Source of the DNA: an uncultured Planctomycetota bacterium
GTDB lineage: Bacteria > Planctomycetota > Planctomycetia > Isosphaerales > Isosphaeraceae
DNA: 64,000 nt
Direction: 5' to 3'
Assembly (NCBI GenBank): GCA_963845755.1
Contig: CAWJTV010000011.1
Location: 896,001-960,000 of the forward strand
Position 1 is the first letter of the stretch, and each line of letters starts with the position of its first letter. Of this stretch, positions 4,566 through 57,116 are shown one piece after another. The notes under the pieces are model-generated. The model was not told the origin of the DNA and ran no database searches. It saw nothing but the letters and a program-made list of their open reading frames with translations. The translations under genes were made by a program, and so were the position numbers.

Positions 4566-5259
4566 GTGAGCACCGCCGAACGACGACCGCCCACCATCCC
4601 GCTGCTCGCCGATGGCCAGCGGCTCAGCCAGGCCGAGTTCATGCGCCGATACGAACTCACACCGCCCGGCTTCACCGCCGAGCTGATCGGAGGGGTCGTC
4701 CACGTGCCTAGCCCCGTCTCTCGCCGCCCACGGTCAACCCTCGCACGAAGTGAGTTTCTGGCTCGGACATTATGAAGTCCGAACTCCCGGTGTCGAGGGC
4801 CTCGGGGAAACGACCACGCTCATGGACGAATTCGGCGTGCCTCAGCCCGATGCGCAACTGCGCATCTTGCCCGAGTGCGGCGGCCAGACCCGCGATGAGG
4901 GCGAGTACGTCGGCGGCGCGCCCGAGCTGGTCGTCGAGGTCGCCAAATCCAGCCGGAAGATCGACCTCGGCCCCAAGCGGGACGATTACGAACGCGCGGG
5001 CGTCCAGGAATATCTCGTCGTCGCTCGCCATCCCGACGATGTCCACTGGTTCGTCCGCCGGGGCAAGAAGCTGGTGAAGATGCGACGCGATCGCGATGGG
5101 CTCTACCGGTCCAAGATCTTCCCCGGCTTGTGGCTCGACCCGGCAGCGCTCTCGAGACGAGATCTCGCCGGGCTACTCGCGGTGCTCGAGCGTGGCCTGG
5201 CCTCGCCCGAGCACGCCGAGTTCGTCGCCAAGCTGGCCGCCGCGGCGAGAAAGGTGTAA
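4566..5259 (+). CDS. Uma2/DUF820 family restriction-endonuclease-fold protein, copy 1, frameshift near 4720
   Basis: AELIGGVVHVPSP, PQPDAQL, GAPELVVEVA, DLGPKRDDYERAGVQEY, SKIFPGLWLD. Confidence 0.85.
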
Positions 5260-13228: not shown

Positions 13229-14212
13229 TCATTGTTGCGACGACGACTTGATCCGACGTGCGGCCTCCTCGAGGGATTTCCGGAGCTGATCCAACTGGCC
13301 GTCGTCGATGTGACGGCGCTGGCCCTTGACCATCGACAGGAAATGGTCGATCTCCTCGGGCTTCGCCGGATAGCCGATATTGCCGCCGGGCCCGTCGGAG
13401 GTCGCTTGCGACTTGCCCTTGACATCGAGGATCGCGAACCAGGGGATTCCGCCCGAGGCGTCGGAACGGTACCGCGACATCACGTCCTTGCCGCCCGTCA
13501 TGCGGTCGACGTCGACCTGCGCGACGATGAAGTCGCGGTCGAGGATCGCCGCGATCTCGGGCTGAGCCAGCCAATCGTGGAGCTTGTGACACCAGCCGCA
13601 CCAGGGGGCGCCGAAGGTCAGCAGGACGCGCTTGTCGTCGGACGACGCCCGCGACAGGGCCTCCCCGAGGATCAGCTTGGCGTCCTTCGGAGCGATCTTC
13701 CATCGGTCCAGGAACGCCTGGACCCGCTTCGGATCGTGATGGTCGCCCTCCTCGAGCGTGTCGGTCCGCTGCGCCGTGACGACCTTGCCCCGGGCGTCGA
13801 GCACGGCCAGGAACGGATAGCCGACGCCCCTCTCCAGCTCCTCCTTGCTCAGGGCCTCCTTGCACGTCTTGAGCAGATCGGGGGCGTTGGGCGATTCGAG
13901 GTCGATCGTGACGAGGACATATTCATCGCTCAAGGTCTTGCGGATCTCGCGGTTGCTGGCGAAGAGATCGTGCAGCTTGTGGCACCAGCCGCACCAGTCG
14001 CCGCCGAACATGAGCAAGACGCGCTGGTCATCCTTCTTCGCTCGCGCGGTCGCCTTCTCGACCTGGACTTTCGCGTCGGCCGTCTTGTCGTAGATCGACT
14101 CCTTCTTGGCGGCCTTGGCCAGCGGGCTCGCCGGAGTCTGCGCGAACGCGGCTCCCGCGCTCACGACCAGGATGCAGGCCGCTCCCCACCATCTCCGAAG
14201 CTCGTTCTTCAT
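13229..14212 (-). CDS. Secreted protein with two thioredoxin-family domains
   Basis: Signal peptide (AFA/Q), two WCGWC motifs, GYPF and GIPW cis-Pro motifs. Confidence 0.88.
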   Translation of the reverse strand: MKNELRRWWGAACILVVSAGAAFAQTPASPLAKAAKKESIYDKTADAKVQVEKATARAKKDDQRVLLMFGGDWCGWCHKLHDLFASNREIRKTLSDEYVLVTIDLESPNAPDLLKTCKEALSKEELERGVGYPFLAVLDARGKVVTAQRTDTLEEGDHHDPKRVQAFLDRWKIAPKDAKLILGEALSRASSDDKRVLLTFGAPWCGWCHKLHDWLAQPEIAAILDRDFIVAQVDVDRMTGGKDVMSRYRSDASGGIPWFAILDVKGKSQATSDGPGGNIGYPAKPEEIDHFLSMVKGQRRHIDDGQLDQLRKSLEEAARRIKSSSQQ

Positions 14213-14311
14213 GTTCGTCTCCTCTTGATTTGTGTCAGCCTTACGGGTTCACATTACTGTGATCGCCCTTCGGGGAGCAAGCATCATCCGATCCGATTCG
14301 TCGTCACAGCC

Positions 14312-14434
14312 CGCCGCAAACTGCGAGGGGACTGTCACATTCGATGCCAAGGATTCTACCGGGGTCGAGCGATCCGGCCTGCGGATCATGACGCCCCGCG
14401 AGTTCCTGGGCCGGATCGGAGAGAGACCCGATGA
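14312..14434 (+). pseudogene. C-terminal remnant of a PIN-domain toxin
   Basis: AANCEGTVTFDAKDSTGVERSGLRIMTPREFLGRIGE aligns with AAHCEGIVTFNAKDFAGVERFGLWIMTPREFLTRIGE of the intact PIN gene at 56673-57101; the N-terminal part is absent. Confidence 0.8.
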
Positions 14435-14667
14435 GCACGCTGAGCCTGCGACTGCCGGAATTGTTGCACAAGCAATCGAAGCACGACGCGGAGCGGGAGG
14501 TCATCTCGATCAACCCACTCATCACGACGGCGGTGGCCGAGAAGCTCTCGGCGTTGATGACGGGCGACTATCTGGAGGAGCGCGCTGCGCGCGGCGATCG
14601 CGGCGCGTTCGATCGGGTCCTGGCCAAGGTGCCCAACGTCGCGGCCGAGGAAGCCGAGCGTCTTTGA
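14431..14667 (+). CDS. RHH/HicB-like antitoxin, orphan copy
   Basis: MSTLSLRLPELLHK..ISIN..AVAEKLSAL; close paralog of 56440-56676. Confidence 0.8.
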   Translation: MSTLSLRLPELLHKQSKHDAEREVISINPLITTAVAEKLSALMTGDYLEERAARGDRGAFDRVLAKVPNVAAEEAERL

Positions 14668-14741
14668 AGGCTCGGCGTCATCTCGCTGCCATCGATGCAA
14701 GAAGAGGACGCGAGTGATCCGGTTCTGGAGGGCGCGATGAC

Positions 14742-14885
14742 TCAGGGCGTCGCGGACCTCCCCAGGAGGTCTCTGACGATTGCTTGCCTCCAACCGATCT
14801 TGCTGGGTGCGGTGCCGTGGATCTCGCGGACCATCGTCCCGTTCTGGGCGATCACGAGGAGGGTGGGGAAACCTGGGTCCAGAGG
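14742..14885 (-). pseudogene. C-terminal fragment of a TlpA/redoxin-like protein
   Basis: GFPTLLVIAQNGTMVREIHG resembles the cis-Pro beta hairpin of TlpA redoxins; no CxxC upstream. Confidence 0.4.
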
Positions 14886-14938
14886 CACGGGTCGGATCCT
14901 GCCGGCGGCCCATCGGGCGCCGGTCGGGGAGCCGCTTC

Positions 14939-15265
14939 TCAATCCGACCTCCCATTGATCGGGAAGTCATCATCCTCTTCTAGCCGATTGCCAGGAAAGA
15001 GTTTGTTAGCGTCATAGATTTCCCAATCGGTCGCTTCCATATCGTCGGGTGATGGTTTATATGGCCAGTAAGAACCGGAAGTACTTCCTTCGCCATTGTC
15101 TAAATCCCACATCGTGGGCACGCGTTTGAATTCGTCATTGATTGCATCCGATGCGTATTGGTAGAAGTGGTTCACCACAAGGTGGCGGTCCCAAATCGAC
15201 CGCCTGACCTTGTAGAACTCTTCTTCGTGATCGCGGATCAACGTCATAGCTTCCGTGAAGGTCAT
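14939..15265 (-). CDS. DUF2829 / Tad2-like small protein
   Basis: MTFTEAM, KVRRSIW and YKPSPDDMEATDWEI match the family pattern MxFxEA, VxRxxW, PSxxDxxAxDW; GGAGGAG RBS; lower GC than flanks. Confidence 0.72.
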   Translation of the reverse strand: MTFTEAMTLIRDHEEEFYKVRRSIWDRHLVVNHFYQYASDAINDEFKRVPTMWDLDNGEGSTSGSYWPYKPSPDDMEATDWEIYDANKLFPGNRLEEDDDFPINGRSD

Positions 15266-15548
15266 GGCCCATCTCCTCCCTTATATTCTGACTACCGCAT
15301 CAGCGAGTGGCAATGGGATTCCGGCGGGAAAGTTTTACGATATGTCAGTCATTTCCTCCTTTCATGGAACCACGCAGACACTATACCGCGGATGATGGCG
15401 ATGCCGAGGGACGGCCCGCGAGACGATCACGCCGAGATCGCACAGGGCCAGAGATTCGAGCGGGGAAATCCGCGGCACCCTGGAATCGTCTCGACGAGAA
15501 ACGCCGCTTCCGCTAGATTCCTCGCACAATCGAAACGGGAGACGATCA

Positions 15549-15923
15549 ATGGGTAAGGCAATCCTGCGCGGGATTCTCTGGGTCTTCTTCGGCATGTTTC
15601 CAGCAGCTTTGCTGGTCGGCATGCTCTACCGCTTCCCGATCCCGTTCCGGGGATATGTGAACGGTTGGGAGATGTTCCAGGAGGGCCTGAATGAAACGAT
15701 GGAGCTCATCTGGCTCCTCATCCAGGCGGTCACCTATTACACGTTCTGGGGCGGCTTCATCCCGCTGGCCCTCCTCGGAACCATCGCCGGGTTGCTGGGT
15801 CGCTGGCTGGGTCGGCCGGATCACGGCGATCTGTATGCGCGGAATATTGCCTTGGGCCTGGGCTTCGCTTTGGCGGCCTTCCTGTCGGTGCTGGATAAGA
15901 TCGTGGGGCCGTGGGTGAGTTAG
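15549..15923 (+). CDS. Small hypothetical membrane protein
   Basis: Three hydrophobic segments, YRFPIPFRGY motif, GGGAG RBS. Confidence 0.65.
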   Translation: MGKAILRGILWVFFGMFPAALLVGMLYRFPIPFRGYVNGWEMFQEGLNETMELIWLLIQAVTYYTFWGGFIPLALLGTIAGLLGRWLGRPDHGDLYARNIALGLGFALAAFLSVLDKIVGPWVS

Positions 15924-16178
15924 GAGGCTGGCCGGGCTTCCAATCGTTTCCTCCTCCCCAGAACCACACGGCGATCGTCCCGCCTACCAGACCTGCCAGG
16001 AGAGCGAAGAGGGAGTGGCCAACGCGAACAAATTCTTCTTGATTCGCCGAACCGGGTAGGGTGGTCCGCCAGCGAGCCGCTGGCTCTTGCAGGACCATGA
16101 TGGTACCGGCTTTGGCATCAATGCAAGGTAGGAGGGGCTCTGTGCGCCGCCCCGTCGGCCATCCAGGCGTGAGCCGCT

Positions 16179-17366
16179 CTAGCTGATCTGCGCCTTCAGC
16201 CAATCCGTCGCGGCCTTCCAATCCGCCTGATGGATCCGCTCGGCGACTTCTTCGAGGAAGTCGAGCGTATCCTTGGAGGCGTCATCGAGTGCGATCGGCT
16301 TCGGCAGGTTCATCTGCACCCGGTGGTAGTGCCCGGCCAGCGCCTGATCGCACACGTAGCTGTTCGATGCGGAACTGGCGTCGAGCAGGGCGGAGAGCAA
16401 CGGGAAGGCGGGCGTGAGCGTCTCTTTGTTCCCCAGGCTCACCCCGCGAGGAAGGGGAGAGAGCCATGCCAAGGCCCCGTATTCGGCCGCCCTGTCGAAG
16501 GGCGTTGAATGTGGGATGTCGATCCCGCTGATTTGTACGCCCGTGCCGATCGAGAGGATGCGGATGCTATTGACATCCCCCTGATTGGCACGGCAGGCGA
16601 GGCCCAGCGCGATGCTCGCGGGGCAGTTGGCGAAGAGGCCGCCGTCAACGCAGAAGCCGAACTCGGGGTGCGGGTAAGGCGGGAAATAGAGGGGGGCGGC
16701 GCTCGTACAGAGGGCGGCATCGACCAACTTCGTCGAGAGGGTCTGCTTGTCCTGGACCCGAATATCAGCCGCGTCGGCATTCGCTTCGCCGACATTGTGC
16801 AGCACCAGGGGTGCCCAGTTCCTGGCCTCTGAGAACAGTCGGAGCGTCGTGACCACCGCCGACCTCCTCAGATCGCCCATCGTCGCCTTCCCGAAGTGTT
16901 GCGTCAGCACCCTCCTCAGCCCGGCGTTCGAATACCTCGGGTGGATCAGGTCCAGCGGATCGAACTGGAAGCTTCTCAGGAGTTCCCGCACTTTGGCATC
17001 GAGGCCGCTCAGGAATTCCAGGAACCGGCTCCTCGCCGGATGCCTGGAGCTATTCACCGTGAAGATCTCCGGCCCGCGGTCCCGATACAGCGCGACCAGC
17101 TCGGCCGGGGATAGGTTGTGGGCCAGCCCCAGGGCGATGATTCCGCCCGTGGATGTCCCCGCGAAGAGGTCAACCTTGTCGAGAAACGGGACCTCGTTCT
17201 GGAGCCGTTCGATGACCTTGGCGGTCAGCAGGCCGCGAATTCCGCCGCCGTCGCACGACAGAATCAGGTACGGCTTGGTTCGGGAGGGTTGCGCACCCAC
17301 CGCGGCGGCCATCGGGAGCGAGAGTCCGGCCAACTTCAGCGTGTCGCGTCGGGTCATCCTGTCCAT
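16179..17366 (-). CDS. Patatin-like phospholipase with Tat signal
   Basis: TRRDTLK twin-arginine leader; DGGGIRG, GTSTG (catalytic Ser), SAAP, DGG (catalytic Asp), LSIGTG. Confidence 0.92.
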   Translation of the reverse strand: MDRMTRRDTLKLAGLSLPMAAAVGAQPSRTKPYLILSCDGGGIRGLLTAKVIERLQNEVPFLDKVDLFAGTSTGGIIALGLAHNLSPAELVALYRDRGPEIFTVNSSRHPARSRFLEFLSGLDAKVRELLRSFQFDPLDLIHPRYSNAGLRRVLTQHFGKATMGDLRRSAVVTTLRLFSEARNWAPLVLHNVGEANADAADIRVQDKQTLSTKLVDAALCTSAAPLYFPPYPHPEFGFCVDGGLFANCPASIALGLACRANQGDVNSIRILSIGTGVQISGIDIPHSTPFDRAAEYGALAWLSPLPRGVSLGNKETLTPAFPLLSALLDASSASNSYVCDQALAGHYHRVQMNLPKPIALDDASKDTLDFLEEVAERIHQADWKAATDWLKAQIS

Positions 17367-17722
17367 GGATCGGACCTCCTGGAGGGGTGGAAGCCTGCCT
17401 AGGGTCCGCCATTTGAGTCGGCATCGCGGGAGAATGCAAGGTCATTCGGGGACGCCGACGTCTTCAAATGGGCGATGCCGCTTCGCGACCATTCGGTTAT
17501 CGACGCCTTGCCCCGCGATACCGATGATGCCACCCCGCGGAAGGTCCTTCTTGCTCATTGACCTTTGATCACCGTGGATCGAGTCCTTTCCGATGCGATA
17601 CGATGGATCTCCCGAGGGTCGAGCCGTTCGACCGGCGCATGACAACCTCGCGGACGTTCCCGGCGCGGACCGGCTCGAGCACGACGGCCGGGACCTCTTG
17701 CGATCGGAGAGGACAATTCGGC

Positions 17723-19273
17723 ATGACGCTCGTGCTCTGGTGGGGAATCGTGGTCGGCGCCGTGGCCGCGGGGGCGGACGATGATCGCCCCGCTTTCCCG
17801 TTCTTCGAGCCGGTCCAGCCGCCGCGCGCGATCCAGGTGATGGCCCACCGCGGCGCGATGAACCAGGCGCCCGAGAACACGGCGCGGGCGCTGGAATTCT
17901 CCATCGCCGATGGCGTGGAGTGGGTCGAGGTCAACGTCCGGCTCACCAAGGATGGCCATCATGTCCTGTTCCATGATGGCGAGCTTCAGGGGAAGACCGG
18001 CGGCTCCGGGGCGGTTCGCGCTCACACCCTGGCGGAGATCCGGGCCCTCGATGTCGGATCCTCGTTCGCCCGGCGATTCGCCGGCGCGCGAATCCCGACG
18101 CTCGCGGAGGGATTGGAGCTCGCACGAGGGCGGGTCAACCTCTACCTCGACCTCAAGGATGTGGACCCCGTCCAACTGGCTCGCGAGGTCGTCGCGGCCG
18201 GGATGGCGCGTCAGGTCGTCTTCTACGACAGGCCCGAAGTCCTCAAGGCGATCCGCACGGCCGCGACCGAAGAACTGGCCGTGATGACGAAGTGGCGACC
18301 GCGGTTCGGCATGGACCGATGGGTCGAGGAGGTCCGGCCGGCGGCCGTCGAGATCGACGCGGGCGACGTCACGCTCGAAGCCTGTCGCGCGTTCCACCGG
18401 CTCGGGATCAAGGTCCAGGCGAAGGTGCTGGGCCAGGAGGACCGGCCCGAGGTCTGGGACCGCATGGTCGCCGCGGGCGTCGACTGGCTTCAGACCGACC
18501 ACGCCGAGGAGATCCTGGCGCGGCTGGCCCTCAAGACCACTCGCGGCCGAAGACCACAGATCGCCCACCACCGCGGAGCATCGCGTTATGCTCCTGAGAA
18601 CACGTTTCCGGCCCTCGAAAAAGCGATCCACCTCGGGGCCGACTTCGTCGAGTTCGACGTGCGCACGACCCGCGACGGGAAGCACGTCTTGCTCCACGAT
18701 GGCACCTTCAACCGCACGACCAGTGGGCGGGGAGCGGTCCGCGATCAGGAGGCAGGCGCGATCGCACTTCTCGACGCCGGATCCTGGTTCGGCCGATCGT
18801 TCCGGGGGACGATGGTCCCCAGCCTCGACGCGTTCCTCGAAGCGGCGGGCCGGCAAGTCGAGCTCTACGTCAACGCCAAGGACATCGCGCCCAAGGCCCT
18901 CGCGGAAGTCTTGTCCCGGCACGGCCTGATCGAGCGGGCCGTCGTGTATCAACATATCGAATACCTCGAAGAGCTCCGGCGCATCGATCCGCGAATCCGA
19001 CGGATGCCGCCGCTCCGAAATCCGGCGCAATTCGATGTCGTAATCGACCGGGTTCGACCGTATGCCCTCGACACCCAGTGGTCGATCCTCTCCAAGGAGT
19101 TGATCGATCGCTGCCACTCCAAGGGCGTCAAGGTCTTCAGCGACGCGCTCGGCATGCACGAGTCGATCCCCCGATACCGGCGCGCCATCCGCGACGGCAT
19201 CGACGTGATCCAGACCGATTATCCGCTGCGCGTGCTCCGGGCCATCGAGCTGGAAGGCGGGGCGAGGGATTGA
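17723..19273 (+). CDS. Exported two-domain glycerophosphodiester phosphodiesterase
   Basis: GGAGAGG RBS, signal peptide, two HRG..PENT..DG..HD..QTD domains. Confidence 0.9.
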   Translation: MTLVLWWGIVVGAVAAGADDDRPAFPFFEPVQPPRAIQVMAHRGAMNQAPENTARALEFSIADGVEWVEVNVRLTKDGHHVLFHDGELQGKTGGSGAVRAHTLAEIRALDVGSSFARRFAGARIPTLAEGLELARGRVNLYLDLKDVDPVQLAREVVAAGMARQVVFYDRPEVLKAIRTAATEELAVMTKWRPRFGMDRWVEEVRPAAVEIDAGDVTLEACRAFHRLGIKVQAKVLGQEDRPEVWDRMVAAGVDWLQTDHAEEILARLALKTTRGRRPQIAHHRGASRYAPENTFPALEKAIHLGADFVEFDVRTTRDGKHVLLHDGTFNRTTSGRGAVRDQEAGAIALLDAGSWFGRSFRGTMVPSLDAFLEAAGRQVELYVNAKDIAPKALAEVLSRHGLIERAVVYQHIEYLEELRRIDPRIRRMPPLRNPAQFDVVIDRVRPYALDTQWSILSKELIDRCHSKGVKVFSDALGMHESIPRYRRAIRDGIDVIQTDYPLRVLRAIELEGGARD

Positions 19274-27211: not shown

Positions 27212-29111
27212 ATGTCACAGCGCGACGAGGTTCCGCGGAGAGATGCGGAGGAGCCGGCTCGGCGATGGGCCGTATGTCGGGGTGCGGTCGCCAGAGAAGC
27301 CATCATCGGGCTGGCGATCGCGACGGCCTTGCTGGCTCCGGGATTGGTCCGGCGCAGGCACCAGACGGCCGGGATTGGGTTGGCAAGCGGGTCGTGCAGA
27401 GGTTCCACGGTCTCGAGCTTCGTGAGACGCAGTCATCCGAAAGCCGAGAACCCGATCGAATTGAGATCTACCGCGTGGAGCGAGTTCGCGACCGATGGCT
27501 CTGGCTGGAAGCCGAGGAGACGAAAACCAGCGGCTGGGTCCTGGCGAGCCAGGTGATACCGGTCGAACGGGCCATCGAATACTTCTCCGATCGAGCCCGC
27601 CGCAACCCGGACGATCCCTGGTGTTACCTCATGCGGTCCAAACTCTGGTACGACAAGGGGCGTCTCGACCGGGCCCTCGCGGATTGCAACGAAGTGATCC
27701 GGCTCGTTCCCGATGATGCCGCCGGGTATAGTAACCGCGGAGTCGTCTGGTCGGAGATGAAGAAGCAGGACAACGCCATCGACGACTACACCAAGGCCAT
27801 CGAGATGAATCCTCGATACTCCGATGCCTTTCTCGGCCGTGGCACCGTCTGGCGCGAGAAGAAGGAGTACGATATCGCCATCGCCGACTTCAACGAGGCC
27901 ATCCGAAACGATCACCGAAATGTCGCGGCCTACAACGGCCGTGGGCTCGCGCGGTATGAGAAGAGGGAGTACGACCTGGCGATCACTGACTTCGACGAGC
28001 TCATACGGATCAATCCCGGATTCTCCTGGGCGTACCACAACCGCGGTCGCGCCCGGCACGCAAAGCACGATTACGCCAAGGCCATCGTCGAGTATGACGA
28101 AGCGATCCGACTCAATCCCGACGACGCTTCGAGCTACGAGGATCGCGGCCTCGCCTGGTCCGCGGAGAAGGACCATGAGAAAGCCCTCGCCGATTTCAAT
28201 GAGGCCATCCGGCTCGATCCCAAGTCCGCTTCCGCCTACGACAGTCGCGGTCATACCTGGTCCGATAAGAAGGAGTATGACAAGGCGATCGCGGACTTCG
28301 ACCAGGCCATCCGGCTCGATCCGGATTATCGCTGGCCTTACAGTGGTCTGGGTTGGGCGTTGCGCGGCAAGAAGGAATACGCCAAAGCCATCGCCGACTT
28401 CGACCGGGCCATCCAGATCGATCCTCGGAGCCTCGATGATTACTATGGCCGTGGTTTGACATGGTCCGATCGGAAGGACTACGACAAGGCGATCGCCGAT
28501 TATAACGAGGTCATCCGGCTCGACCCGAAGTTCGCCTGGGCCTACTATCATCGTGGTTTGGCGGGCGCTACCGGAAAGAATGGGGCAGTGCCCTCGACGA
28601 CTTCGATCAGGCCATCCGCCTCGATCCCAAGGAAGCCTTTTCCCAGTACTCCCGGGCGGCGATCCTGTTCCTGACGCGGCGCGAGGGTGCGGCGGATGCG
28701 GCGCAAGCGGTGCTGGACCTCCAGGGCTGGCGCGGGAACCTGTCGATATACGCGGCGCTGCTGGATCACTTCGTCGCACGCCGCGCCGGCCAGGACGGCC
28801 GAGCGAAAGAGATCCTCGACGCGGCCAAGGCCCGATGCGACACGTCCGCCTGGCCCTATCCGATCATCGCGTACCTTCGCGGCGAGCTCGATGAAGCCAA
28901 GCTTCTGGCATCCGCCATCAACCACGACAAGATGACCGAGGCGCGGTGCTACCTCGGGCTCCAGATGCTGGCGATGGGCCGCAAAGCGGCGGCCGAGGCG
29001 CACTTCCGCTGGGTCAAGGATCGCGGTAACTCACGATTCACGCAGCATGCCCTGAGCGTCGCCGAGCTGGACCGCCTCCTGGCGGAGCGGACCCAGGGGG
29101 ATGGGCCGTGA
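27212..29111 (+). CDS. Secreted TPR protein 1 (SH3-like N-domain, TPRs, NlpI-like C-terminus), frameshifts near 27350 and 28575
   Basis: AGGAGG RBS; DWVGKRVVQ..IYRVERV..WLWL..SGWV; repeated DKAIADFxEAIRLDP; C-terminal WPYPIIAYLRG..TEARCYLG..FRWV. Confidence 0.85.
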
Positions 29112-33242: not shown

Positions 33243-35513
33243 ATGGGGCATCAGGAGAGGAACGCGACCCTCGGTGGTCGAGTCCGACGGGTGGCCGCAT
33301 GGCTGGCGATCGGACTGATGACGGTCGTGCCGTGCCGGTCGCTGGGCGAAGAGCCCTCGGCCCAGGACTGGGTCGGTAAGCGAGTCGTGCAGAAGTACAA
33401 CAACTTCCCCCTGCGCAACGACGGCCAACCCGTGGCGGGGAGCGGTGAGCGGTTCGTGATCTACCGCGTGGAGCGGGTTGAGGGCGGACGGCTCTGGCTC
33501 GAGGCCGAGGGGCAAGGCCTGCGCGGCTGGGCTGCGGTCGGACAGATGATCCCGGTCGACCAGGCCATCGCCTTCTTCACCGATCGAATCCGTACGCGCC
33601 CGGATGATCCGTTCCTGCGTTCGATGCGACTCGGGCTGTCGATGGATCAGTGCGCGCACGCCTGTGCCGTGGCGGATTGCACCAAGATGGTTTGCGCGGG
33701 GATCGCCGAGTTGAGCCGGAAGGCCCGGCTGGCGGCGCGGGAGGCGGCCGTGGCCGGAGTGCCCATCGAGTCCGACGGTCGTGAGCTTTCCCTCGAGGAT
33801 TGGCTCGGCCAGAAGGTTGTCCCGAAACATCGGGACTTCCGGCTTCCGAATGGACAGGGCGACCCCTTTCACGATAAGAAGCTCCTGTCTCACTACGTGC
33901 TGGACGTGAACGGCCTTTCACTGACGATCATGACTTCCCAGGGCGACGCCTGGGTCCCGGCCGATCAGGTCGTACCGCTCGACAAGGCGGTCGCGTTCTT
34001 CAGCGACACCATCAAGGCCAATCCCCGGGATCCGTTCCCTTACTTCATGCGCGCCAAGGTCCTGCTGGATGTGTCGAACGATCCGGACAAGGCCCTGGCG
34101 GACCTGAACGAGTCCATCCGCCTCGATCCGAAGAATGCGGCGAGCTACCGCAATCGCGCCGACGCCTGGTCGGAGAAGGGGGATCCGGACAAGGCCATCA
34201 CCGACGACTCGGAAGCCATCCGGCTCGATCCGAAGGATGCCGGCTCTTACCAGCATCGAAGCGAAATGTGGGGGGCCAAGAAGGATTACGACAAGGCCCT
34301 CGCCGACGTCAACGAGGCCATCCGGCTCGATCCCCGCGATGACGACGCATTCGCCCTGCGCGGCGATATCTGGCTGTCCAAGGAAGCCTACGATCAAGCG
34401 ATCGCCGATTACACGGAAGCCATTCGGGTCTATCGCCGCCGTCATGAGGTTTTGGCGGGTCGTCCCGCGTCCCAGTACGGAAATCCGAAGTCGGATCGGG
34501 CCGGCGACGATCCGGCGCACCTCGCTTTCTCACCGGCCGCGCCCACGCCATTGCCATCTGTTCTGGCAGACCTCGATCCCGATCGCTTCCTGGATCACGG
34601 GCGCGAGCTGGCCCTGGCCTACGTGGCGCGCGGGAGAGACTGGTCGGACCAGGAGGAATACGACCGGGCGATCGCCGACTACACCGAGGCCATCCGGATC
34701 GTTCCTCCGCTCGCCGAAGCCTACCTGAGTCGTGGCATGGCCTGGACGAAGAAGGAAGCGTACGACCAGGCGATCGCCGACCTCGACAAAGCCATCGAGC
34801 TCGACCCCCGGAACGCGGGTGCCCACGGTGTTCGCGGCGTCGTCTGGGGCGAGCGGAAGCAGTACGACAAGGCCCTCGCCGATTGCAATGAGGCGATCCG
34901 ACTCGATCCCAAAGACGGGGACGTCTACGTGTCCCGAGGCTGGGTTTGGAGATGTCAGCAGAAGTATGACAAGGCGATCGCCGATTTCAGCGAGGCCATC
35001 CGTTGCGAACCGCGGGAGGCGCGATTCTACAGCACGCGCGGCTGGGCCTGGTATGAGCGGAAGGCGTACAACCAGGCCCTCGCCGACTACGATGAGGCCA
35101 TCCGGCTCGATCCTGGCGATGCGTCCGGTTATGGAGGGCGCGGCTACGTTCTCTCGAAGAAGCGAGAGTATGGTACGGCTCTCGCCGACTTCGACCGGGC
35201 GATTCGCCTCGATCCGCGATGCGTGGGAGCCCACGCCGGCCGCGCCTGGATCCGGGCGACCGCTCGCGATGCGAAATACCGCGACGGCCCGAGCGCCAGA
35301 GAGTCGGCTTCCCAGGCGTGCGCGCTGTCGAAGGAGAAGAACGCCTACGCCCTCGATGCGATGGCCGCGGCCTGCGCCGAGGTGGGCGATTTCGACGCGG
35401 CGATAATCTGGGAGATCCGGGCGATCGAGCGCCAGAATGACGAGGAAGACCAGGCGGAATCCCGCTCGCGGCTGAAGCTCTACCGGGAACGGAAACCCTA
35501 CCGAGCCGAGTAG
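33243..35513 (+). CDS. Secreted TPR protein 2 (two SH3-like N-domains)
   Basis: Signal peptide; DWVGKRVVQ and DWLGQKVVP domains; TPRs; C-terminal AWIRAT..YRDG..AEVGDF..RLKLYRERKPYR cap. Confidence 0.9.
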   Translation: MGHQERNATLGGRVRRVAAWLAIGLMTVVPCRSLGEEPSAQDWVGKRVVQKYNNFPLRNDGQPVAGSGERFVIYRVERVEGGRLWLEAEGQGLRGWAAVGQMIPVDQAIAFFTDRIRTRPDDPFLRSMRLGLSMDQCAHACAVADCTKMVCAGIAELSRKARLAAREAAVAGVPIESDGRELSLEDWLGQKVVPKHRDFRLPNGQGDPFHDKKLLSHYVLDVNGLSLTIMTSQGDAWVPADQVVPLDKAVAFFSDTIKANPRDPFPYFMRAKVLLDVSNDPDKALADLNESIRLDPKNAASYRNRADAWSEKGDPDKAITDDSEAIRLDPKDAGSYQHRSEMWGAKKDYDKALADVNEAIRLDPRDDDAFALRGDIWLSKEAYDQAIADYTEAIRVYRRRHEVLAGRPASQYGNPKSDRAGDDPAHLAFSPAAPTPLPSVLADLDPDRFLDHGRELALAYVARGRDWSDQEEYDRAIADYTEAIRIVPPLAEAYLSRGMAWTKKEAYDQAIADLDKAIELDPRNAGAHGVRGVVWGERKQYDKALADCNEAIRLDPKDGDVYVSRGWVWRCQQKYDKAIADFSEAIRCEPREARFYSTRGWAWYERKAYNQALADYDEAIRLDPGDASGYGGRGYVLSKKREYGTALADFDRAIRLDPRCVGAHAGRAWIRATARDAKYRDGPSARESASQACALSKEKNAYALDAMAAACAEVGDFDAAIIWEIRAIERQNDEEDQAESRSRLKLYRERKPYRAE

Positions 35514-35569
35514 GTCAGGCTTTCCTGCCTGACGGATTTGATGATGTCAGGCGGGAAAGCCTGACCAAC
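35510..35569. repeat. GTAG-type REP doublet overlapping the TPR2 stop codon
   Basis: GTAGGTCAGGCTTTCCTGCCTGAC ... GTCAGGCGGGAAAGCCTGACCAAC; same family as 61855-61920. Confidence 0.8.
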
Positions 35570-35586
35570 GAATGGAGGATCGGGGA

Positions 35587-37160
35587 ATGAGGCATGGAGT
35601 GAAACACGCGACGATGGGCGAAACGGTCCGGCTGACCGCGTGGGTGCTGGTGTTTGGGCTGTCTATCGCCTTACCGGTGCGCTCGCTGGGCCAGCAGCCG
35701 GCCGGCCCGGAGGGAGGCGGCCTGCGCGTGGTGCCGAAGCATCGGACCCTCACTCTTCAGAACGGCGGCGGCGCGCCGCCGCGCGGTGAAGCCCGATGTC
35801 TTCCGCGTCGCTCAGTCCAAGGGCGGCTGGCTCTTGCTCCGGCCCGACGAGGGCCCCGCCGGCTGGGTTGCGGCCGATCAGGTCGTCGCCCTCGATCAAG
35901 CCGTCGCGTTCTTCAGCAGCGCGATCAGCAAGGACCCGCACGATCCCCACAACTTCGCGATGCGCGCCCTGGCGCTGCTGGTCGAACGGGAGGATCCGGA
36001 ACACGCCCTCGCCGACTGTAACGAGGCGATCCGGCTGGATGACAAGGACCCGATCGCCCACCGCATCCGCGGCGCGATCCACTCGGCCACCCAGAACTAC
36101 GACAAGGCGATGGGCGATTTCGACGAGGTCATCCGGCTCAGGCCGAAGGACGGGGCCTCGTATCACGACCGCGGGACCACCCGGATGTTCCAGCAGGACT
36201 ACGACCGGGCCATCGCCGACTTCAACCAGGCCATCCAGCTCAATCCCAAGGACGCGGCGAGCCATATCTCCCGCGCCGCGGCCTGGCTGGAGAAGAACCA
36301 GCAAGACCAGGCCATCGCCGATTGCAACGAGGCCATCCGGCTCGATCCCGCGAACGCCGATGCTTACCTGCTGCGCGCCTCGATCCATGGCCAGAAGCGG
36401 GAGTTCGACCAGGCCATCGCCGACTTCACGCGGATCATCAAGATGAATCCCCAGGCGTTCCTGGCGTACGAGGCGCGGGACGAGTTGGCGGAACAAGAAA
36501 GAGTACGCCCGGGCGATCGCCGATCTCAACGAGGCGATCCGCCTCAATCCGAACTACCCCGGCGCCTACGTCGAGCGCGGACTCACCTGGCGGGATCAGC
36601 GCGAATACGACAAGGCCATCGCCGATCTCGGGCAGGCCATTCGCATCGATCCCGAGAGCCCCGAGCTCTATGCCCTCCGCGGCGACACCTGGGTCGAGAA
36701 GAAGGGGTTCGACCAGGCCATCGCCGATTTCGGCCGGGTCATCCAGCTCGAGCCCAAGAACGCGTTCGCCTATTGCAGCCGCGGCCTGGCCCACGCCCGG
36801 AAACAGCAATACGACCAGGCGATCGCCGACCTCGACAAAGCCATCCAGCTCGATCCCAAGAACTCGGATGCCCTCAACGGCCGCGCCTGGTTCCGCGCGA
36901 CCTGTCCGGTCGCCAGCTATCGCGATGGGGCCCAGGCCATCGCCTCGGCCACCCAAGCGTGCGAGGTCGCCGGCTGGAAAGAGCCCGGACTGATCGACAC
37001 CCTCGCCGCCGCCTACGCCGAGGCCGGCGACTTCGGCTCCGCCCTGAAATGGCAGGCCAAGGCGATGACGCTGGAAACCGATGCCCACGAGAAGGCCGAA
37101 TACGGCGCGCGGCTCCAGCTCTATCAGGCGAAGAAGCCCTATCGTGAGGAGAAACCCTAG
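35587..37160 (+). CDS. Secreted TPR protein 3, frameshifts near 35775 and 36478
   Basis: [36 protein letters not shown] domain; TPRs; C-terminal [29 protein letters not shown]. Confidence 0.85.
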
Positions 37161-37478
37161 AGCGCGTAACGATTGCATTGCGCACGCCCCCGGGGGCGTG
37201 CGATCGACCCGCCGCAGCCCGGGGGGACGACCTCCGACGGCGGCCCGAAGGGCCGCAGGAGCAAAGCCCCGGGTGAAACCCGGGGTCCGCGGCAGGCCAG
37301 CCCCCATCTCCGGCGGCCTGAAGGGCCGCAGGAGACTTCCGGCACCCCTTCAGGGTGCACGAGGAAGGCGCGGGGTGCACGAGTCCCAGGGTTTCACCCT
37401 GGGCTGGGGTCCCGCGGCCCGTCAGGCCGCAGAACATCGGCTGACAGCGTGTGCGCAACCCATCTGTTATGCGCTCTA
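37158..37478. mobile_element. MITE-like element with 28-bp TIRs and palindromic cargo
   Basis: Left end TAGAGCGCGTAACGATTGCATTGCGCAC, right end GTGCGCAACCCATCTGTTATGCGCTCTA; TA at both ends; internal GGCCCGAAGGGCC / CCCGGGTGAAACCCGGG / CCCAGGGTTTCACCCTGGG palindromes. Confidence 0.75.
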
Positions 37479-37572
37479 ATGCGGCGCTGACCTGGAGGCG
37501 CTCAACGGTTGGATTTCCAAACAGCGCGAGAAGCGGCAAGGACGACGTCCGTACCACAAGGAGGATCGGGCT

Positions 37573-39639
37573 ATGCGGGGTTGGTGGAAGCTTGCGGCGA
37601 GTGGCGGCACTCGGCTCCGGGTCTGGAAGGCCGTCGTATTCCTGGGCCTGGCGATGGCCATGGCGGGCGTCTCGGGCGGCGAGGAGCCGTCGGCAAAAGA
37701 CTGGGTCGGCAGGCGGGTCGTGCAGAAGTACAACAACTTCCCCCTGCGCCACGACGGCCAGGCCGTGCCGGGGAGCGGAGAGCGGTTCGTGATCTTCCTC
37801 GTGGAGCGGGTCGAGGACGGACGGCTCTGGCTCAAGGCCGAGGGGGAAGGCCTGCGCGGCTGCGCCGCGGTCGGACAGGTCATCCCGGTCGACCAGGCCA
37901 TGGCCTACTTCGACGCGCGCATTCACGCCCATCCGGACGACACGTTCCCCCATTTCATGCGCGCCGGCCTGTGGATGGATCGGAACGAGATCGACCGCGC
38001 CGTGGAGGACTGCACCGAGATCGTCCGCCTCAACCCCGAGCCCCGTTCGTTCGTGGATCGCGGCAATCTCTGGCTGCGCATGCACAACGCCGACAAGGCG
38101 ATCGCCGACTTCGACCAGGCCATTCGCCTGGATCCTCGGGCCACCCCGGCGTTCACCGGGCGCGGTGAGGCTCACCTGCTGAAGAAGGAGTACGATCAGG
38201 CGATCGCCGACCACAGCGAGGCCATCCGGCTCGATCCCGACGACGTCGTGGCCCGCTTCAGTCGCGGACAGACCCAGGCGGAGAAGGGCGACTACGACCA
38301 GGCCATCGCCGACTTCACCGAGGCCCTGAAGCGCGATCGGGAATTCCTCGCGGCGCTCAACGGCCGGGGGCTCGCCTGGCACAAGAAGGCGGAGTACGAC
38401 AAGGCGATCGCCGACTACAACGAGGCCCTCCGCATCGATCCGAAGAACGCCACGATCTATTACAACCGCGGGCTCTCCTGGCAGTTCAAGAATGAGTTCA
38501 TCAAGGCGGTCAACGATTACAATCAGGCCGTTCGCCTCGACCCGCGCTACGCCGCGGCCTCCCGGTTCGGGCGTCCCACCTCGGGCCTGGCCGGGCTCGT
38601 CGGCGCGATCCAGGTTGGTCCGCCGTTCGCACCGGGGGGCGCGGGTGTCGTCGATCCGGACGTGCTCAAGGCGGGCGGTGACGACCCCTTCGGCAACTTC
38701 ACCCGGGACCTCGAGCGCGACCTGGCCTACGCCGACCTGTGCATGCGACGCGGCTACGAATGGGGGAGCGAGAAGGCGTACGACAAGGCGATCGCCGATT
38801 TCACCGAGGCCATCCGATTCAACCCGCACCTGACCGGTGCCTACATCGGCCGCGGCCACGCCTACCGCGAGAAGAAGGCGTTCGAGAAGGCCATCGCCGA
38901 TTACGACCAGGCGCTAAAGGAAGATCCGCAGGCCGGGGTCGCAGTCATGGGCCGCGCCCTGGCCCGGGAAGGTCTGGGACAGATCGACCAGTCGTTCGCC
39001 GACCTCAACCAGGCCGTCAAGCTCGACGCGCAGTCCCCGGTCGCCCATGCCGGCCGCGCCTACGGGTGGCTGCGGAAGAAGGACTACGACAAGGCCATCG
39101 CCGATTTCGACGAGGCCTTGCGCCTCGATCCCCAGATGCTCAGCGCCTACGTCGGCCGCGGTCATGCCCGGTTGGAGAAGAAGGCGTTCGACCAGGCGAT
39201 CGCCGACTACACCGAGGCCGTCCGGATCAATCCCGAGATCGTGGAGACCTACCTCGGCCGCGCCCGGGCCTGGTCCGAGAAGAAGGAATACGACAAGACG
39301 ATCGCCGACTACGCCGAGGCGATCCGGCTCGACCCGCAACTGGCGTGGGCCTACAACAACCGCGCCTGGCTCTGGGCGACGTGCCCCGAGGCCAAGGCCC
39401 GCGACGGCAAGAAGTCCATCGAATCGGCGACCAAGGCGTGCGAGCTGTCCGACTGGAAGGAGCCCGGCATGATCGACACTCTCGCCGCGGCGTATGCCGA
39501 GACGGGCGACTTCGAGGCGGCCGTGAAGTGGCAGACCAAGGCCAACGGGCTCTTCGCCGACGGTAAGGATAAGACCGACGGCGAGGCGCGGCTAAAGCTC
39601 TACCAGGAGAAGAAGCCGTATCGCGAGACGGCGCCGTGA
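37573..39639 (+). CDS. Secreted TPR protein 4
   Basis: AAGGAGGATCGGGC RBS, signal peptide, SH3-like N-domain, TPRs, conserved C-terminal cap. Confidence 0.92.
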
Positions 39640-39669
39640 CGAAGCCAGCTCGGCAAGGAGGATCGGGCG

Positions 39670-42066
39670 ATGCGAGGCTCGAGAGCGATCGCGGCGGCGT
39701 GCGGCGGGACGAGAGCGCCGAACACTCGCATTGCGCATGCCGCCGATTCGGATGGAGGGACCCCCTCATCCGCCCTTCTGGCACCTTCTCCCCGAGGGGG
39801 AGAAGGGGACGCGATCCGTCGCCCTCGCCCCCACGGAGAGAGGGTCGGGGTGAGGGGGCGTGTGCGCAATCCAACCGTGAAGCGATCTGGATCGCCTCAC
39901 ACTGGGGTTGGACACACGCGAAACCCTCTCCCGAAGAACCCCCCGGAACCCCCCCTGCGTAAGGGGGGGACAATTGAGGCGGGAGTGGTCCCTTTCCTGT
40001 CCCCCCCTTACGAAGGGGGGGTTCCGGGGGGTGGATTCGCGCCCCCACAGGGTGTGCGCCATTCAATCGTTAAGCGATCTAATGGAATCGGACTGGTCGT
40101 CGTCGTCGGCCTGATGACGGCCTGGGCGGTCAGTGCCCGCGGTGACGAGCCCGCCGGCAAGCGAGTCGTGTCCCGCTCTGGTGCTGGCCTCGATGGAGGC
40201 TTCCTGGCCGACCTTGTCGCCGATCTTCGAGAATTCGGCTCCGATTGCTGCGTCTTCTGCGGCTGCGTCTTGCTGGAGACCGACGAATACGACAAGGCGA
40301 TCGCCGCCTTCAACGCGGCCATCCGCCTCGATCCTCAGAACGCCGAGGCCTACACTGATCGCGGCTTTGCATGGTTTCAGAAGAACGAGCTGGACAAAGC
40401 GATTGCCGATCTGAATGAGGCCATCCGCCTCGATCCCCAGGTGGACGGAGCACACGCGAATCGCGCCGTCATCTGGTCGGTGAAGAAGGAGTATGACAAG
40501 GCCATCGCGGACTACTCGGAGGCCATCCGACGGGATCCGCGCGACGCTGCCGCCTATGCCGGTCGGGGAAGCGCATGGGGGAACAAAGGTCAGTACAACC
40601 GAGCCATCACTGATTACAAGGAGGCGATTCGGATCGATCCGCACCTCGCCACGGCCTACATCGGTCGTGGTGCCGCCTGGACGCGGAAGCTCGAGCTGGA
40701 CAAGGCCTTGATCGATCTGAATGAGGCCATCCGCCTCGATCCCCAGGACACACTCGCTTTCATCAACCGGGCCGAACTCTGGAGGGCGAAGAGTGAATTC
40801 GACCGGGCCATCGCCGATCTCACCGAGGTCATCCGGCGGGATCCCCGAGCCGCCAAGGCATATGCCGATCGCGGCTGGATCTGGAAGGCCCGCGGTGAGT
40901 ATGCCAAGGCCATCGCGGATTATTCCGAGGTCATTCGCCTCGATCCTCGAGATGCGCGGATGTTCAACAGTCGTGGGATCGCTTGGTATTTCCGGAAAGA
41001 ATACGATCGCGCGATCGCCGATTACACCGAGGCGATTCGCCTGGATCCGCGTTACGCTCAAGCCTACAACAACCGCGGGCTCGTCTGGCAAGTCAAGAAA
41101 GAATTTGACAAGGCCATCGCCGATTTCAACGAGGCGGTGGGCATCGATCCTCGGAACGCCAAAACCTTTGATAGCCGGGGCGAGGTCTGGTTTCAGAAGA
41201 ATGAGTACGACAAGGCGATCGCCGATTTCAACGAGGCGGTCAGGCTTGATCCCCGGCAGATCAGGTCTTACGGAAACCGCGCGTCAACATGGCGCAGAAA
41301 GGGAGAGTACGACAAGGCGATCGCCGACTGGAACGAAATCATCCGCATCGAACCTCAGTCCTCTGGGGCGTATAGTGATCGCGGCGCGGCTTCGATGAAC
41401 CTGGGGAAGATCGACGCGGCGATGGCCGATTTCAACGAGGCCCTGCGGATCGATCCTCGCCACAGCCTGGCCCACAGTAATCGCGGCTTGGCCTGGTGCA
41501 GCAAGGGAGAGTATGACAAGGCTATCGAGGATTGCAACAAGGCTATCCAGCTCGATCCACAATGTTCACTTGCCTACAACAACCGAGGTATTGCCTGGTG
41601 GAGCAAGAAAGAGCGTGATAAAGCCATCGCCGATTACACAACAGCCATTCAACTCGATCCTCGAGATGCCAGAACTTACTACAATCGCGGCATAAGCTGG
41701 CACGACAAGGGCGACTACGACAAGGCCGTCGCGGATTATACAGAAGCGATCCGGCTCAATCCCGGGCATGCTAATGCGCGTAGCGGCGGGGCCTGGATCT
41801 GGGCGACCTGCCCCGACCCGAAATACCGCGACGGCCAGAAGGCCGTCGCGTCGGCGACCAAGGCGTGCGAATTGACCCACTGGAAAGACGCGAATCACCT
41901 CCATACCCTCGCCGCGTCGTACGCTGAAACGGGCGACTTCGAGGCGGCCGTGAAGTGGCAGACCAAGGCCAATGGGCTGTTCGCCGAGGGTAAGGACAAG
42001 ACCGACGGCGAAGCGCGGCTCAAGCTCTACCAGGAGAAGAAGCCGTATCGCGAGACGACACCGTGA
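39670..42066 (+). CDS. Secreted TPR protein 5, with a 369-bp in-frame repeat insertion in the signal peptide
   Basis: AAGGAGGATCGGGCG RBS; open frame through the repeats; long TPR run; conserved cap; lacks most of the SH3-like domain. Confidence 0.88.
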   Translation: MRGSRAIAAACGGTRAPNTRIAHAADSDGGTPSSALLAPSPRGGEGDAIRRPRPHGERVGVRGRVRNPTVKRSGSPHTGVGHTRNPLPKNPPEPPLRKGGTIEAGVVPFLSPPYEGGVPGGGFAPPQGVRHSIVKRSNGIGLVVVVGLMTAWAVSARGDEPAGKRVVSRSGAGLDGGFLADLVADLREFGSDCCVFCGCVLLETDEYDKAIAAFNAAIRLDPQNAEAYTDRGFAWFQKNELDKAIADLNEAIRLDPQVDGAHANRAVIWSVKKEYDKAIADYSEAIRRDPRDAAAYAGRGSAWGNKGQYNRAITDYKEAIRIDPHLATAYIGRGAAWTRKLELDKALIDLNEAIRLDPQDTLAFINRAELWRAKSEFDRAIADLTEVIRRDPRAAKAYADRGWIWKARGEYAKAIADYSEVIRLDPRDARMFNSRGIAWYFRKEYDRAIADYTEAIRLDPRYAQAYNNRGLVWQVKKEFDKAIADFNEAVGIDPRNAKTFDSRGEVWFQKNEYDKAIADFNEAVRLDPRQIRSYGNRASTWRRKGEYDKAIADWNEIIRIEPQSSGAYSDRGAASMNLGKIDAAMADFNEALRIDPRHSLAHSNRGLAWCSKGEYDKAIEDCNKAIQLDPQCSLAYNNRGIAWWSKKERDKAIADYTTAIQLDPRDARTYYNRGISWHDKGDYDKAVADYTEAIRLNPGHANARSGGAWIWATCPDPKYRDGQKAVASATKACELTHWKDANHLHTLAASYAETGDFEAAVKWQTKANGLFAEGKDKTDGEARLKLYQEKKPYRETTP
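39711..40081. mobile_element. Two tandem MITE-like units (39711-39889 and 39888-40081) of the same TIR family as 37158-37478
   Basis: Four 28-bp ends similar to TAGAKCGCNTMAC-N7-TTGCGCAC; cargo 1 CCCTCATCCGCCCTT..CACCTTCTCCCC..GAGAAGGG; cargo 2 CCCCCCTTACGAAGGGGGG type. Confidence 0.72.
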
Positions 42067-42096
42067 CACGGCCTGCACGACAAGGAGGATCGACCG

Positions 42097-44121: not shown

Positions 44122-44151
44122 TACGGCCGGGACGCCAGGGAGGAGCGGGCC

Positions 44152-57101: not shown

Positions 57102-57107
57102 CGCGGT

Positions 57108-57113
57108 ATTATA
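57108..57113 (-). promoter_or_regulatory. -10 box of a probably leaderless TA promoter
   Basis: TATAAT 6 nt upstream of the toxin ATG, with no SD between them. Confidence 0.6.
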
Positions 57114-57116
57114 GAG

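Follow-up and report, generated by a model that had tools for sequence, protein, structure and literature searches.

This report concerns a small gene in a 64,000-nucleotide stretch of DNA from an uncultured Planctomycetota bacterium of the family Isosphaeraceae. The stretch, referred to throughout as the window, comprises C11:896001-960000 of an assembly of 14.27 Mb that consists of 49 contigs and is 87.9% complete. Within it lies an open reading frame (ORF) whose predicted product resembles Tad2 (DUF2829), and a preliminary description of the same DNA had proposed that this ORF encodes a sponge for nucleotide signals in a chromosomal setting free of phage genes. The gene and the elements that belong to it are as follows.

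14939..15265, minus strand: Tad2-like (DUF2829) ORF of 108 codons, with an ATG start and an intact frame by translation
15273..15279, minus strand: Shine-Dalgarno-like GGAGGAG, 7 nt 5′ of the ATG, read directly from the sequence
15266..15548, minus strand: upstream intergenic region of low GC (about 285 bp), from the GC profile
14950..15550, strand not applicable: low-GC islet of ~600 bp, GC 0.49-0.57 compared with ~0.65 on both sides

Translation, direct inspection and the GC profile bear out what had been said of the ORF itself, namely that it encodes 108 aa, has lower GC than its surroundings and its own ribosome-binding site (RBS), and contains the motifs MTFTEAM (residues 1-7), KVRRSIW (19-25) and PSPDDMEATDWEI (71-83) as well as an acidic tail, LEEDDDFPINGRSD. 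The PF11195 domain occupies residues 1-84; residues 85-108 comprise a YDxxKLF extension, conserved in the clade described below, and the acidic tail, which is modelled at low confidence. GC drops to 0.49 (14950-15249) and 0.51 (15100-15399); the DNA immediately downstream has 0.65-0.66, and the genes around it have 0.62-0.76. At codon positions 1, 2 and 3 of the ORF, GC is 0.51, 0.38 and 0.59, whereas the neighbouring genes have a third-position GC (GC3) of 0.81-0.89. The islet holds nothing besides the Tad2-like gene and the region 5′ of it. It occurs once in the genome, as a 901-bp query (14660-15560) matches itself alone in the 14.27-Mb assembly, and PF11195 is single-copy in a genome-wide scan (31.5 bits). 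Two sigma-70-like promoter matches lie upstream on the correct strand (TCGGCA-16-TATAGT, 15407->15380, and TTGCCA-17-CAGAAT, 15313->15285), where shuffled sequences give 0.6 ± 0.7; being consensus matches only, they are weak evidence. Rfam gave no match at E ≤ 1 within 13500-17000.

Two other features of the islet and its edge were considered and set aside. An 11-nt perfect inverted repeat (14951-14961 and 15543-15553; CCCATTGATCG and CGATCAATGGG) brackets the islet almost exactly, but is not taken as the end of an element because, by our own estimate, chance alone would give ~0.8 pairs of this kind in the 2.6 kb scanned. A 66-aa ORF on the minus strand (14742-14942), which overlaps the stop codon of the Tad2-like gene, is treated as non-coding; it has no Pfam, NCBIfam, PADLOC or PHROG match and no similarity to the adjacent thioredoxin-like protein. 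The Tad2-like ORF itself is more than a chance reading frame, as it passes the Pfam cut-off, has intact homologues elsewhere, and shows a proportion of nonsynonymous differences (pN) well below that of synonymous differences (pS).

Several lines of comparison place the product in the Tad2/DUF2829 family, as the preliminary description had suggested. PF11195 (Tad2-like, formerly DUF2829) matches at 31.8 bits against a curated cut-off of 25 (E = 2.1e-7), with residues 1-84 aligned to positions 1-73 of the 73-position profile. The only PHROG match of the protein is to phrog_1048, a family of unknown function (E = 1.1e-4), and PADLOC and NCBIfam gave no match for it. An AlphaFold2 model built with 16 homologues has a mean predicted local distance difference test score of 79.4, with low confidence from about residue 91 on, and its elements follow the order alpha1-beta1-beta2-beta3-beta4-alpha-beta5, in which the first three strands are long and the second helix is short. 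This corresponds to the Tad2 fold, in which an N-terminal helix precedes an antiparallel sheet of five strands and a short helix comes between strands four and five. In a Foldseek search of the Protein Data Bank (PDB), ranks 1-24 are all Tad2/AcrIIA7 chains (probability 0.99-1.00, E from 9.8e-4 to 3.9e-2), and at rank 25 the probability falls to 0.54. VIA-align likewise returned ten Tad2 entries, from SPO1 Tad2, ModTad2, HgmTad2/AcrIIA7 and SptTad2, with Z of 9.8-8.4 and a root-mean-square deviation (rmsd) of 2.8-3.4 Å over 72-75 residues, the next row being unrelated at Z 4.9. The best matches among the predicted viral structures of BFVD are phage 'Thoeris anti-defense 2-like' proteins, and 29 of 30 feature matches in the ESM Atlas fall in Tad2-like clusters. 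Membership in the family and fold is therefore well supported. A prediction from four copies of a homotetramer, the assembly of SPO1-type sponges with ligand pockets at the interfaces of subunits, gave a score of 0.00 and a mark of 0.42, which is not evidence either way.

The close relatives of this protein are few. A search of 5.8 billion proteins returned nine at E ≤ 1e-3 including the query, with a precomputed PF11195 assignment in eight, and a search of 1.84 billion representatives returned ten, two of which (P0018 and P0019) are long, unrelated and without PF11195; these two and the frameshift-like P0011 are excluded from the alignments. A profile of the clade matches in two of 120 other Isosphaeraceae genomes and in none of the 400 other Planctomycetota genomes sampled. 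There is a partial match on a 2.8-kb Chthonomonadaceae contig, beside an HNH gene, and a scan of metagenomes added one 1.4-kb contig with a match. The homologue in one Isosphaeraceae genome, G070, is 72% identical, and homologue P0002, on an 840-kb contig, is 84% identical. To judge by these searches, the clade is very rare, and divergent within Tad2/DUF2829. Its conserved columns are M1-T2, A6-M7, V20-R21-R22, W25, W53, L55-D56-N57, G64, P71, D75, D80-W81-E82, Y84-D85 and L89. Y84-D85 and L89 fall outside the Pfam domain, on its C-terminal side, so that the clade shares a conserved extension (YDxxKLF), which is followed by the acidic tail.

It is informative to examine these columns in light of the ligand pocket of SPO1 Tad2. 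In the preprint by Yirmiya et al., the pocket for glycocyclic ADP-ribose (gcADPR) is formed by W25, N26, I63, T65, D67, H71, W73, S76, T78 and D79. An alignment of SPO1 Tad2, taken from the phage record, with 13 clade members by MAFFT, for which HMMER gives the same register, relates these positions to the clade as follows (SPO1 residue, then clade residue).

W25: W in 13/13 clade members
N26: D in 11/13 clade members
I63: M, L or I in 10/13 clade members
T65: D or E in 11/13 clade members
D67: D in 12/13 clade members
H71: W in 9/13 clade members
W73: Y or F in 13/13 clade members
S76: T or S in 9/13 clade members
T78: D or E in 10/13 clade members
D79: D in 13/13 clade members

The secondary structure of the AlphaFold2 model agrees with this register, placing W25 in the beta1-beta2 loop, D56-N57 at the opening of the beta3-beta4 loop, Y69 in the loop before the short helix, and D74-D75 in the short helix. 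The clade-invariant residues W25, N57, P71, D75, D80 and W81, together with the near-invariant D56, coincide with residues that are identical in SPO1 Tad2; among the residues so shared, W25, D67 and D79 (SPO1 numbering) line the gcADPR pocket in that account. In our reading, the core of the pocket is under constraint, which speaks for a ligand. Its lining has been rebuilt and has gained acidic residues, and this favours either a ligand that is not 3′-cyclic ADP-ribose (3′cADPR) or binding mediated by metal or water. Tad2 specificity is plastic, and the preprints by Hadary et al. and Li et al. describe homologues that bind His-ADPR, cUMP/cCMP, N7-cADPR or cyclic dinucleotides (CDNs).

The loops around the pocket also differ. 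Directly after the D-N motif, all 13 clade members have a seven-residue insertion (GEGSTSG in the window protein) that none of the solved proteins has. The insertion falls within the beta3-beta4 loop, and in SPO1 Tad2 this loop forms one wall of the pocket. The beta2-beta3 segment is shortened to 13 residues, compared with 24 in SPO1 Tad2. In HgmTad2 and SptTad2 the same segment contains an insertion domain of 35-41 residues that forms the cavity for cyclic dinucleotides, and SPO1 Tad2, with its 24-residue segment, does not bind them (Li et al. preprint). Because this insertion domain is missing, CDN binding of the HgmTad2 type by the window protein is unlikely, and the suggestion in the preliminary description that the protein might bind cyclic dinucleotides is correspondingly weakened. 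It is weakened too by the genome, where no SMODS CD-NTase passes the cut-off, the best match reaching 14 bits.

The composition and distribution of the gene are suggestive of a foreign origin. The contrast in GC and GC3, the single copy and the patchy distribution all point in this direction, as does comparison with G020, a genome of the same genus that is 87% complete and in which no Tad2-like gene of the clade was found. In G020 the thioredoxin-like and GDPD genes that flank the locus in the window are conserved (89% and 82% DNA identity) and lie ~11.5 kb apart, and the DNA that separates them has no match to the window's genes for the HicB-like, Tad2-like, membrane and patatin proteins. That interval (L036, G020:C13:545000-563000) contains different genes, with several large ORFs of which one looks TetR-like by eye. 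On this comparison, the stretch from the thioredoxin-like gene to the GDPD gene is apparently a hot spot for changes in gene content.

Taken together, these observations lead us to lean, with some reserve, towards the view that the ORF is a solitary sponge gene, acquired horizontally and still functional, which belongs to a new Tad2 clade whose ligand preference has changed. Horizontal transfer would have brought it, alone on a low-GC islet, into a variable region of the 14-Mb chromosome of a soil Isosphaeraceae bacterium, where it would have stayed intact since. By analogy with the family, its product may assemble into a small homo-oligomer and sequester an immune signal derived from a nucleotide, probably an ADP-ribose derivative made by TIR proteins, in a pocket at the subunit interface. 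The alignment suggests that the core of this pocket is kept (W25, D56-N57, D75 and D80-W81), and the ligand preference may be expected to differ from that of SPO1 Tad2 for 3′cADPR because N26, T65 and T78 are changed to Asp and W73 to Tyr, and because the seven-residue insertion after the D-N motif is invariant in the clade. The gene appears to be solitary, with no conserved partner, no Thoeris or cyclic-oligonucleotide-based antiphage signalling system (CBASS) operon and no phage genes beside it.

A number of points weigh against this view and should be taken together. The window protein shares only four of the ten residues of the SPO1 pocket (W25, D56, S72 and D75), with N26, T65 and T78 all replaced by Asp, W73 by Tyr, I63 by Met and H71 by Trp, and the residues were related by sequence alignment (MAFFT, HMMER), not by superposition. 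The changes to Asp contrast with the positive charge attributed to sponge pockets in a 2026 review (PMC13712596), and alignments show Asn26 and Trp73 to be common to SPO1 Tad2, ModTad2 and HgmTad2 and not to the window clade. The oligomeric assembly may likewise differ from the canonical one, since the shortened beta2-beta3 segment is the one that carries helix alpha2 of the SPO1 dimer interface. Neither phmmer with the protein nor hmmsearch with the clade profile reached a solved Tad2 chain; such chains were reached only when SPO1 Tad2 itself was added to the profile. Finally, no donor element was found: tblastn at E ≤ 0.01 matched nothing among 50,697 phage records and 72,556 plasmids, and the only DUF2829 gene recovered from IMG/VR is without the motifs of the clade. 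The gcADPR pocket assumed in the preliminary description is hence retained in part, and binding of Thoeris 3′cADPR cannot be assumed.

Whether the gene is being retained or is decaying can be judged from its homologues and from related strains. By the Nei-Gojobori method, pN is 0.176 and pS 0.863 in comparison with the G070 homologue, and 0.277 and 0.811 in comparison with a second homologue (L043). Among homologues pN/pS is 0.2-0.34 with synonymous sites saturated, so that the protein appears constrained, although this constraint may date from earlier hosts or elements. Contigs from soil metagenomes of three studies carry parts of the gene. Those of one set (X1) are identical to the window, a contig of another (X4) has 8 differences in 248 nt, and a contig of the third (X2; 14786-15111) has 22 differences and one gap in 325 nt and bridges the junction between host-like DNA and the 3′ end of the gene. 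The X2 contig therefore indicates that a strain ~7% diverged carries the gene at the same place, and excludes a chimera of assembly. None of these contigs, which are short and of low depth, spans the islet to show an empty site, and the seven runs found include no RNA data set listed as containing the sequence. In another Isosphaeraceae genome, G021, there is a copy with an internal TGA (L046, G021:C5:3194258-3194509) and, separately, a fragment that retains only the C-terminal part, ...WLDN...ATDWEE... (L047, G021:C4:756483-756587); both look like decayed copies, and the clade therefore decays in some lineages.

The genome is rich in domains that could generate the signals in question. At least 21 ORFs pass the TIR_2 cut-off, and ThsB_TIR matches at eight places at or over the cut-off, one of them only when neighbours in frame are counted. 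The nearest TIR ORF on the same contig is ~81 kb from the Tad2-like gene. PADLOC was applied to 119 ORFs at 17 TIR loci, each of them 110 aa or longer, passing a GC3 filter and within ~4 kb of a TIR match; of these, 12 matched models of TIR type, nine of them ThsB, and no ORF matched a ThsA model at E ≤ 1e-5. Most of the TIR domains lie within large multidomain proteins. The host thus seems rich in potential producers of TIR signals, with no canonical Thoeris operon identified among these loci. The genome survey for TIR and CD-NTase systems that had been proposed in the preliminary description therefore finds the former and, for the latter, no SMODS match above the cut-off. A few kilobases from two short TIR-domain ORFs there is also a 615-aa ORF (L063:209-2056, on C7 of this genome) with PADLOC matches to homing-endonuclease and reverse-transcriptase models (E = 1.7e-104), which is probably a group II intron protein.

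The genes that surround the islet are the following.

14229..17495, strand not applicable: variable interval from the conserved thioredoxin-like gene to the conserved GDPD gene, 3.3 kb here
on one side: M48-type peptidase and double thioredoxin-like protein (Pfam)
14431-14667, plus strand: HicB-like ORF of 78 aa (PF05534, 20.3 bits, cut-off 21), with a host-like GC3 of 0.85
15549-15923, divergent from the Tad2-like gene: ORF of 124 aa for a putative membrane protein, no family match
16179-17366, minus strand: patatin (PADLOC, NCBIfam)
17558-19273, plus strand: tandem-domain GDPD phosphodiesterase (Pfam)

No HicA partner was recognised beside the HicB-like ORF. One X2 metagenome contig skips 184 bases (15928-16113) of the DNA that separates the small membrane ORF from the patatin gene's end, possibly a deletion polymorphism in a related strain. 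The patatin deserved consideration as an effector, given that it matches PADLOC 'Effector/Phospholipase' models at E = 2.2e-53 and the NCBIfam model NF041079 (CBASS_lipase) at 163.1 bits. This last score is below the equivalog cut-off of 200, and the translated N-terminus of the protein has TRRDTLK and then a hydrophobic stretch, which by eye resembles a signal of the twin-arginine translocation (Tat) type. With no CD-NTase nearby, a divergent pairing with the GDPD gene and no counterpart beside the G070 homologue, we rejected the patatin as a CBASS effector linked to the sponge. The pairing suggests lipid catabolism; patatin and GDPD look like an exported pair with this role and not like a defence effector, and we regard the adjacency of patatin and sponge as coincidental.

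As the preliminary description had stated, no phage gene or integrase is apparent in the window as far as tested: Pfam detects no integrase, transposase or phage structural family among the 45 window ORFs scanned, PHROGs give no match at E ≤ 1e-5 for the six window ORFs scanned (nor for three neighbours of the G070 homologue), and no tRNA gene was found. The location usual for Tad2, in a phage, prophage or mobile element, was thus not found for this gene. Elsewhere in the window are a Uma2 domain (4750-5259), a PIN_3 domain (56673-57833), and a set of large paralogous TPR-repeat proteins of 469, 756, 497, 688, 798, 674 and 263 aa (27265-28674 and 33243-45061), most of whose genes form a plus-strand tandem array. 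An ORF at 59906-61663 (plus strand) contains only the C-terminal part of a GyrA/ParC catalytic domain (profile positions 265-431 of 432), with beta-propeller repeats; either it truly begins at a more upstream site, within a different called frame, or the gene is split.

The setting of the relatives is similar in one respect. The G070 homologue also lies within a zone of lower GC (~4.5 kb), among genes for an amidohydrolase, an LRR protein, a DUF1269 protein, a TPR protein, a Ser/Thr kinase and an extracytoplasmic function sigma factor, with no phage gene. The 124-aa membrane ORF has no significant similarity to either neighbour of this homologue, and no conserved partner emerges. Five of the 120 other Isosphaeraceae genomes are positive for PF11195, and three of these (G040, G096 and G012) have canonical copies that score 86-92 bits. 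Two of these three canonical copies lie within ~4 kb of mobile-element genes: that of G040 (L071) is beside terminase-like and ParB-like genes, and that of G096 (L072) is beside integrase-, primase- and HNH-like genes, so that these two loci are likely planctomycete prophages or integrative elements. Set against these copies, the two long contexts of the window clade (this genome and G070), both without phage genes, suggest that a non-phage setting is a property of the clade, as far as two contexts can show.

These contexts bear on the question of what the gene does for its present host, if anything. The preliminary description had raised two possibilities, domestication and a stranded relic. 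In the former, a sponge under its own promoter would raise the activation threshold of TIR-domain proteins, or quench leakage from them, and so act as a buffer of host signals. The circumstances that favour this are the many candidate producers in the genome (the TIR_2 ORFs, the eight ThsB_TIR places and the nine PADLOC ThsB ORFs), the solitary state of the gene with its own RBS and promoter-like sites, the freedom of both long clade contexts from the phage or mobile-element genes seen beside two of three canonical copies, the failure to find the clade in phage or plasmid collections, and the purifying selection on a gene that is present in diverged strains. The absence from viral collections carries little weight, because planctomycete phages are poorly sampled. 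Moreover, the gene has not been ameliorated in GC or GC3, and its residence is therefore recent; it was not found in the genome of the same genus and occurs in only two of 120 family genomes; it has no conserved neighbour, the nearest TIR ORF of its contig being ~81 kb off; no effector of ThsA type is present among the 119 ORFs around 17 TIR loci; and the interrupted copy and fragment in G021 point to loss and not to fixation. The case for domestication is thus circumstantial, and we consider it unlikely. The small size and unameliorated state of the islet, the variability of the locus, the patchy distribution, the broken copies in G021 and the lack of partner genes would fit with a functionless leftover, a moron stranded by a decayed mobile element and intact only because it is young. 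This too seems improbable to us, as the 108-codon frame, start codon and RBS are all intact, pN/pS is 0.2-0.34 (although it integrates selection in earlier hosts or elements), the ~7% diverged strain keeps the gene at the same junction, and the flanks have no scars of an element, only the 11-nt inverted repeat for which ~0.8 occurrences are expected by chance. Of the relic proposed in the preliminary description, it is the functionless version that is weakened.

It is also conceivable, if doubtful, that the Tad2 fold is used here for something other than the sequestering of a nucleotide signal, for example to bind a protein or another metabolite. The replacement of Asn26 by Asp and of Trp73 by Tyr sets the clade apart from all three solved Tad2 clades, and that of Thr65 and Thr78 by Asp sets it apart from SPO1 Tad2; the clade has invariant features of its own in W53-x-L55-D-N and the seven-residue loop, and its conserved YDxxKLF and acidic tail lie outside the Pfam domain. 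A DUF2829 protein was in fact first reported as an anti-CRISPR, AcrIIA7. According to the literature consulted, that activity could not be confirmed, and the biochemically studied Tad2 homologues named there all bind a nucleotide signal; retention of the conserved pocket core likewise argues against a use of this kind.

One more ambitious possibility should be mentioned, although we hold it to be quite unlikely: that the clade, marked by W-x-L-D-N, the seven-residue loop, YDxxKLF and the acidic tail, is a bacterial, chromosomally kept branch of Tad2 that buffers TIR-derived signals of the cell itself with a ligand different from that of phage Tad2. If so, it would set an activation threshold or prevent autoimmunity in a TIR-rich planctomycete. 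The 2026 review treats all sponge families as phage-encoded and does not contain the terms 'host-encoded', 'chromosom' or 'bacterial sponge', and our search of the literature found no paper on a chromosomal or planctomycete Tad2. A protein of Tad2 fold that a bacterium kept apart from any mobile element, and whose pocket had been rebuilt, could serve as a probe for new TIR-derived signals in the planctomycetes, a phylum with unexplored immune signalling. It would also make it possible to test if a cell buffers the immune messengers that it produces. Even if the gene is only the orphan of an unsampled phage, it widens the known diversity of Tad2 sequences and pockets.

Comparison with known systems places the window protein most readily beside SPO1 Tad2 (gp34.65; PDB 8SME, 8SMF and 8SMG), the founding Thoeris anti-defence 2 sponge, with which it shares a Pfam family, a fold and a similarly small size (Z 9.8, rmsd 2.8 Å over 72 residues, 25% identity). 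The two have in common W25, the D-N motif, P-S, D75 (D79 in SPO1) and D-W. They differ in the pocket, where Asp takes the place of N26, T65 and T78, Tyr that of W73 and Trp that of H71, in the seven-residue insertion after DN, and in the beta2-beta3 segment, where helix alpha2 is probably missing from the 13 residues that replace the 24 of SPO1; the window protein also has a C-terminal extension of 23 residues with its acidic tail. The SPO1 gene, moreover, is part of a lytic phage genome, whereas the window gene is chromosomal and solitary. The canonical PF11195 copies of G040, G096 and G012 come from the same bacterial family and belong to the same Pfam family, yet score 86-92 bits compared with 31.5 here; two of them have terminase-, ParB-, integrase- or primase-like genes at a distance of up to ~4 kb, unlike the window clade in its two long contexts. 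HgmTad2/AcrIIA7 and SptTad2 (PDB 8KBI-8KBM, 8WJC and 8WJD) have the same fold (Z 8.4-8.8) and bind cGG and cGAMP by means of the 35-41-residue insertion domain, in place of which the window protein has a segment of 13 residues. ModTad2, which is of prophage origin and also has the same fold (Z 8.7-9.2), keeps the W-N-G-K and W-T-P-S motifs without the seven-residue loop, and illustrates how plastic the specificity of Tad2 can be.

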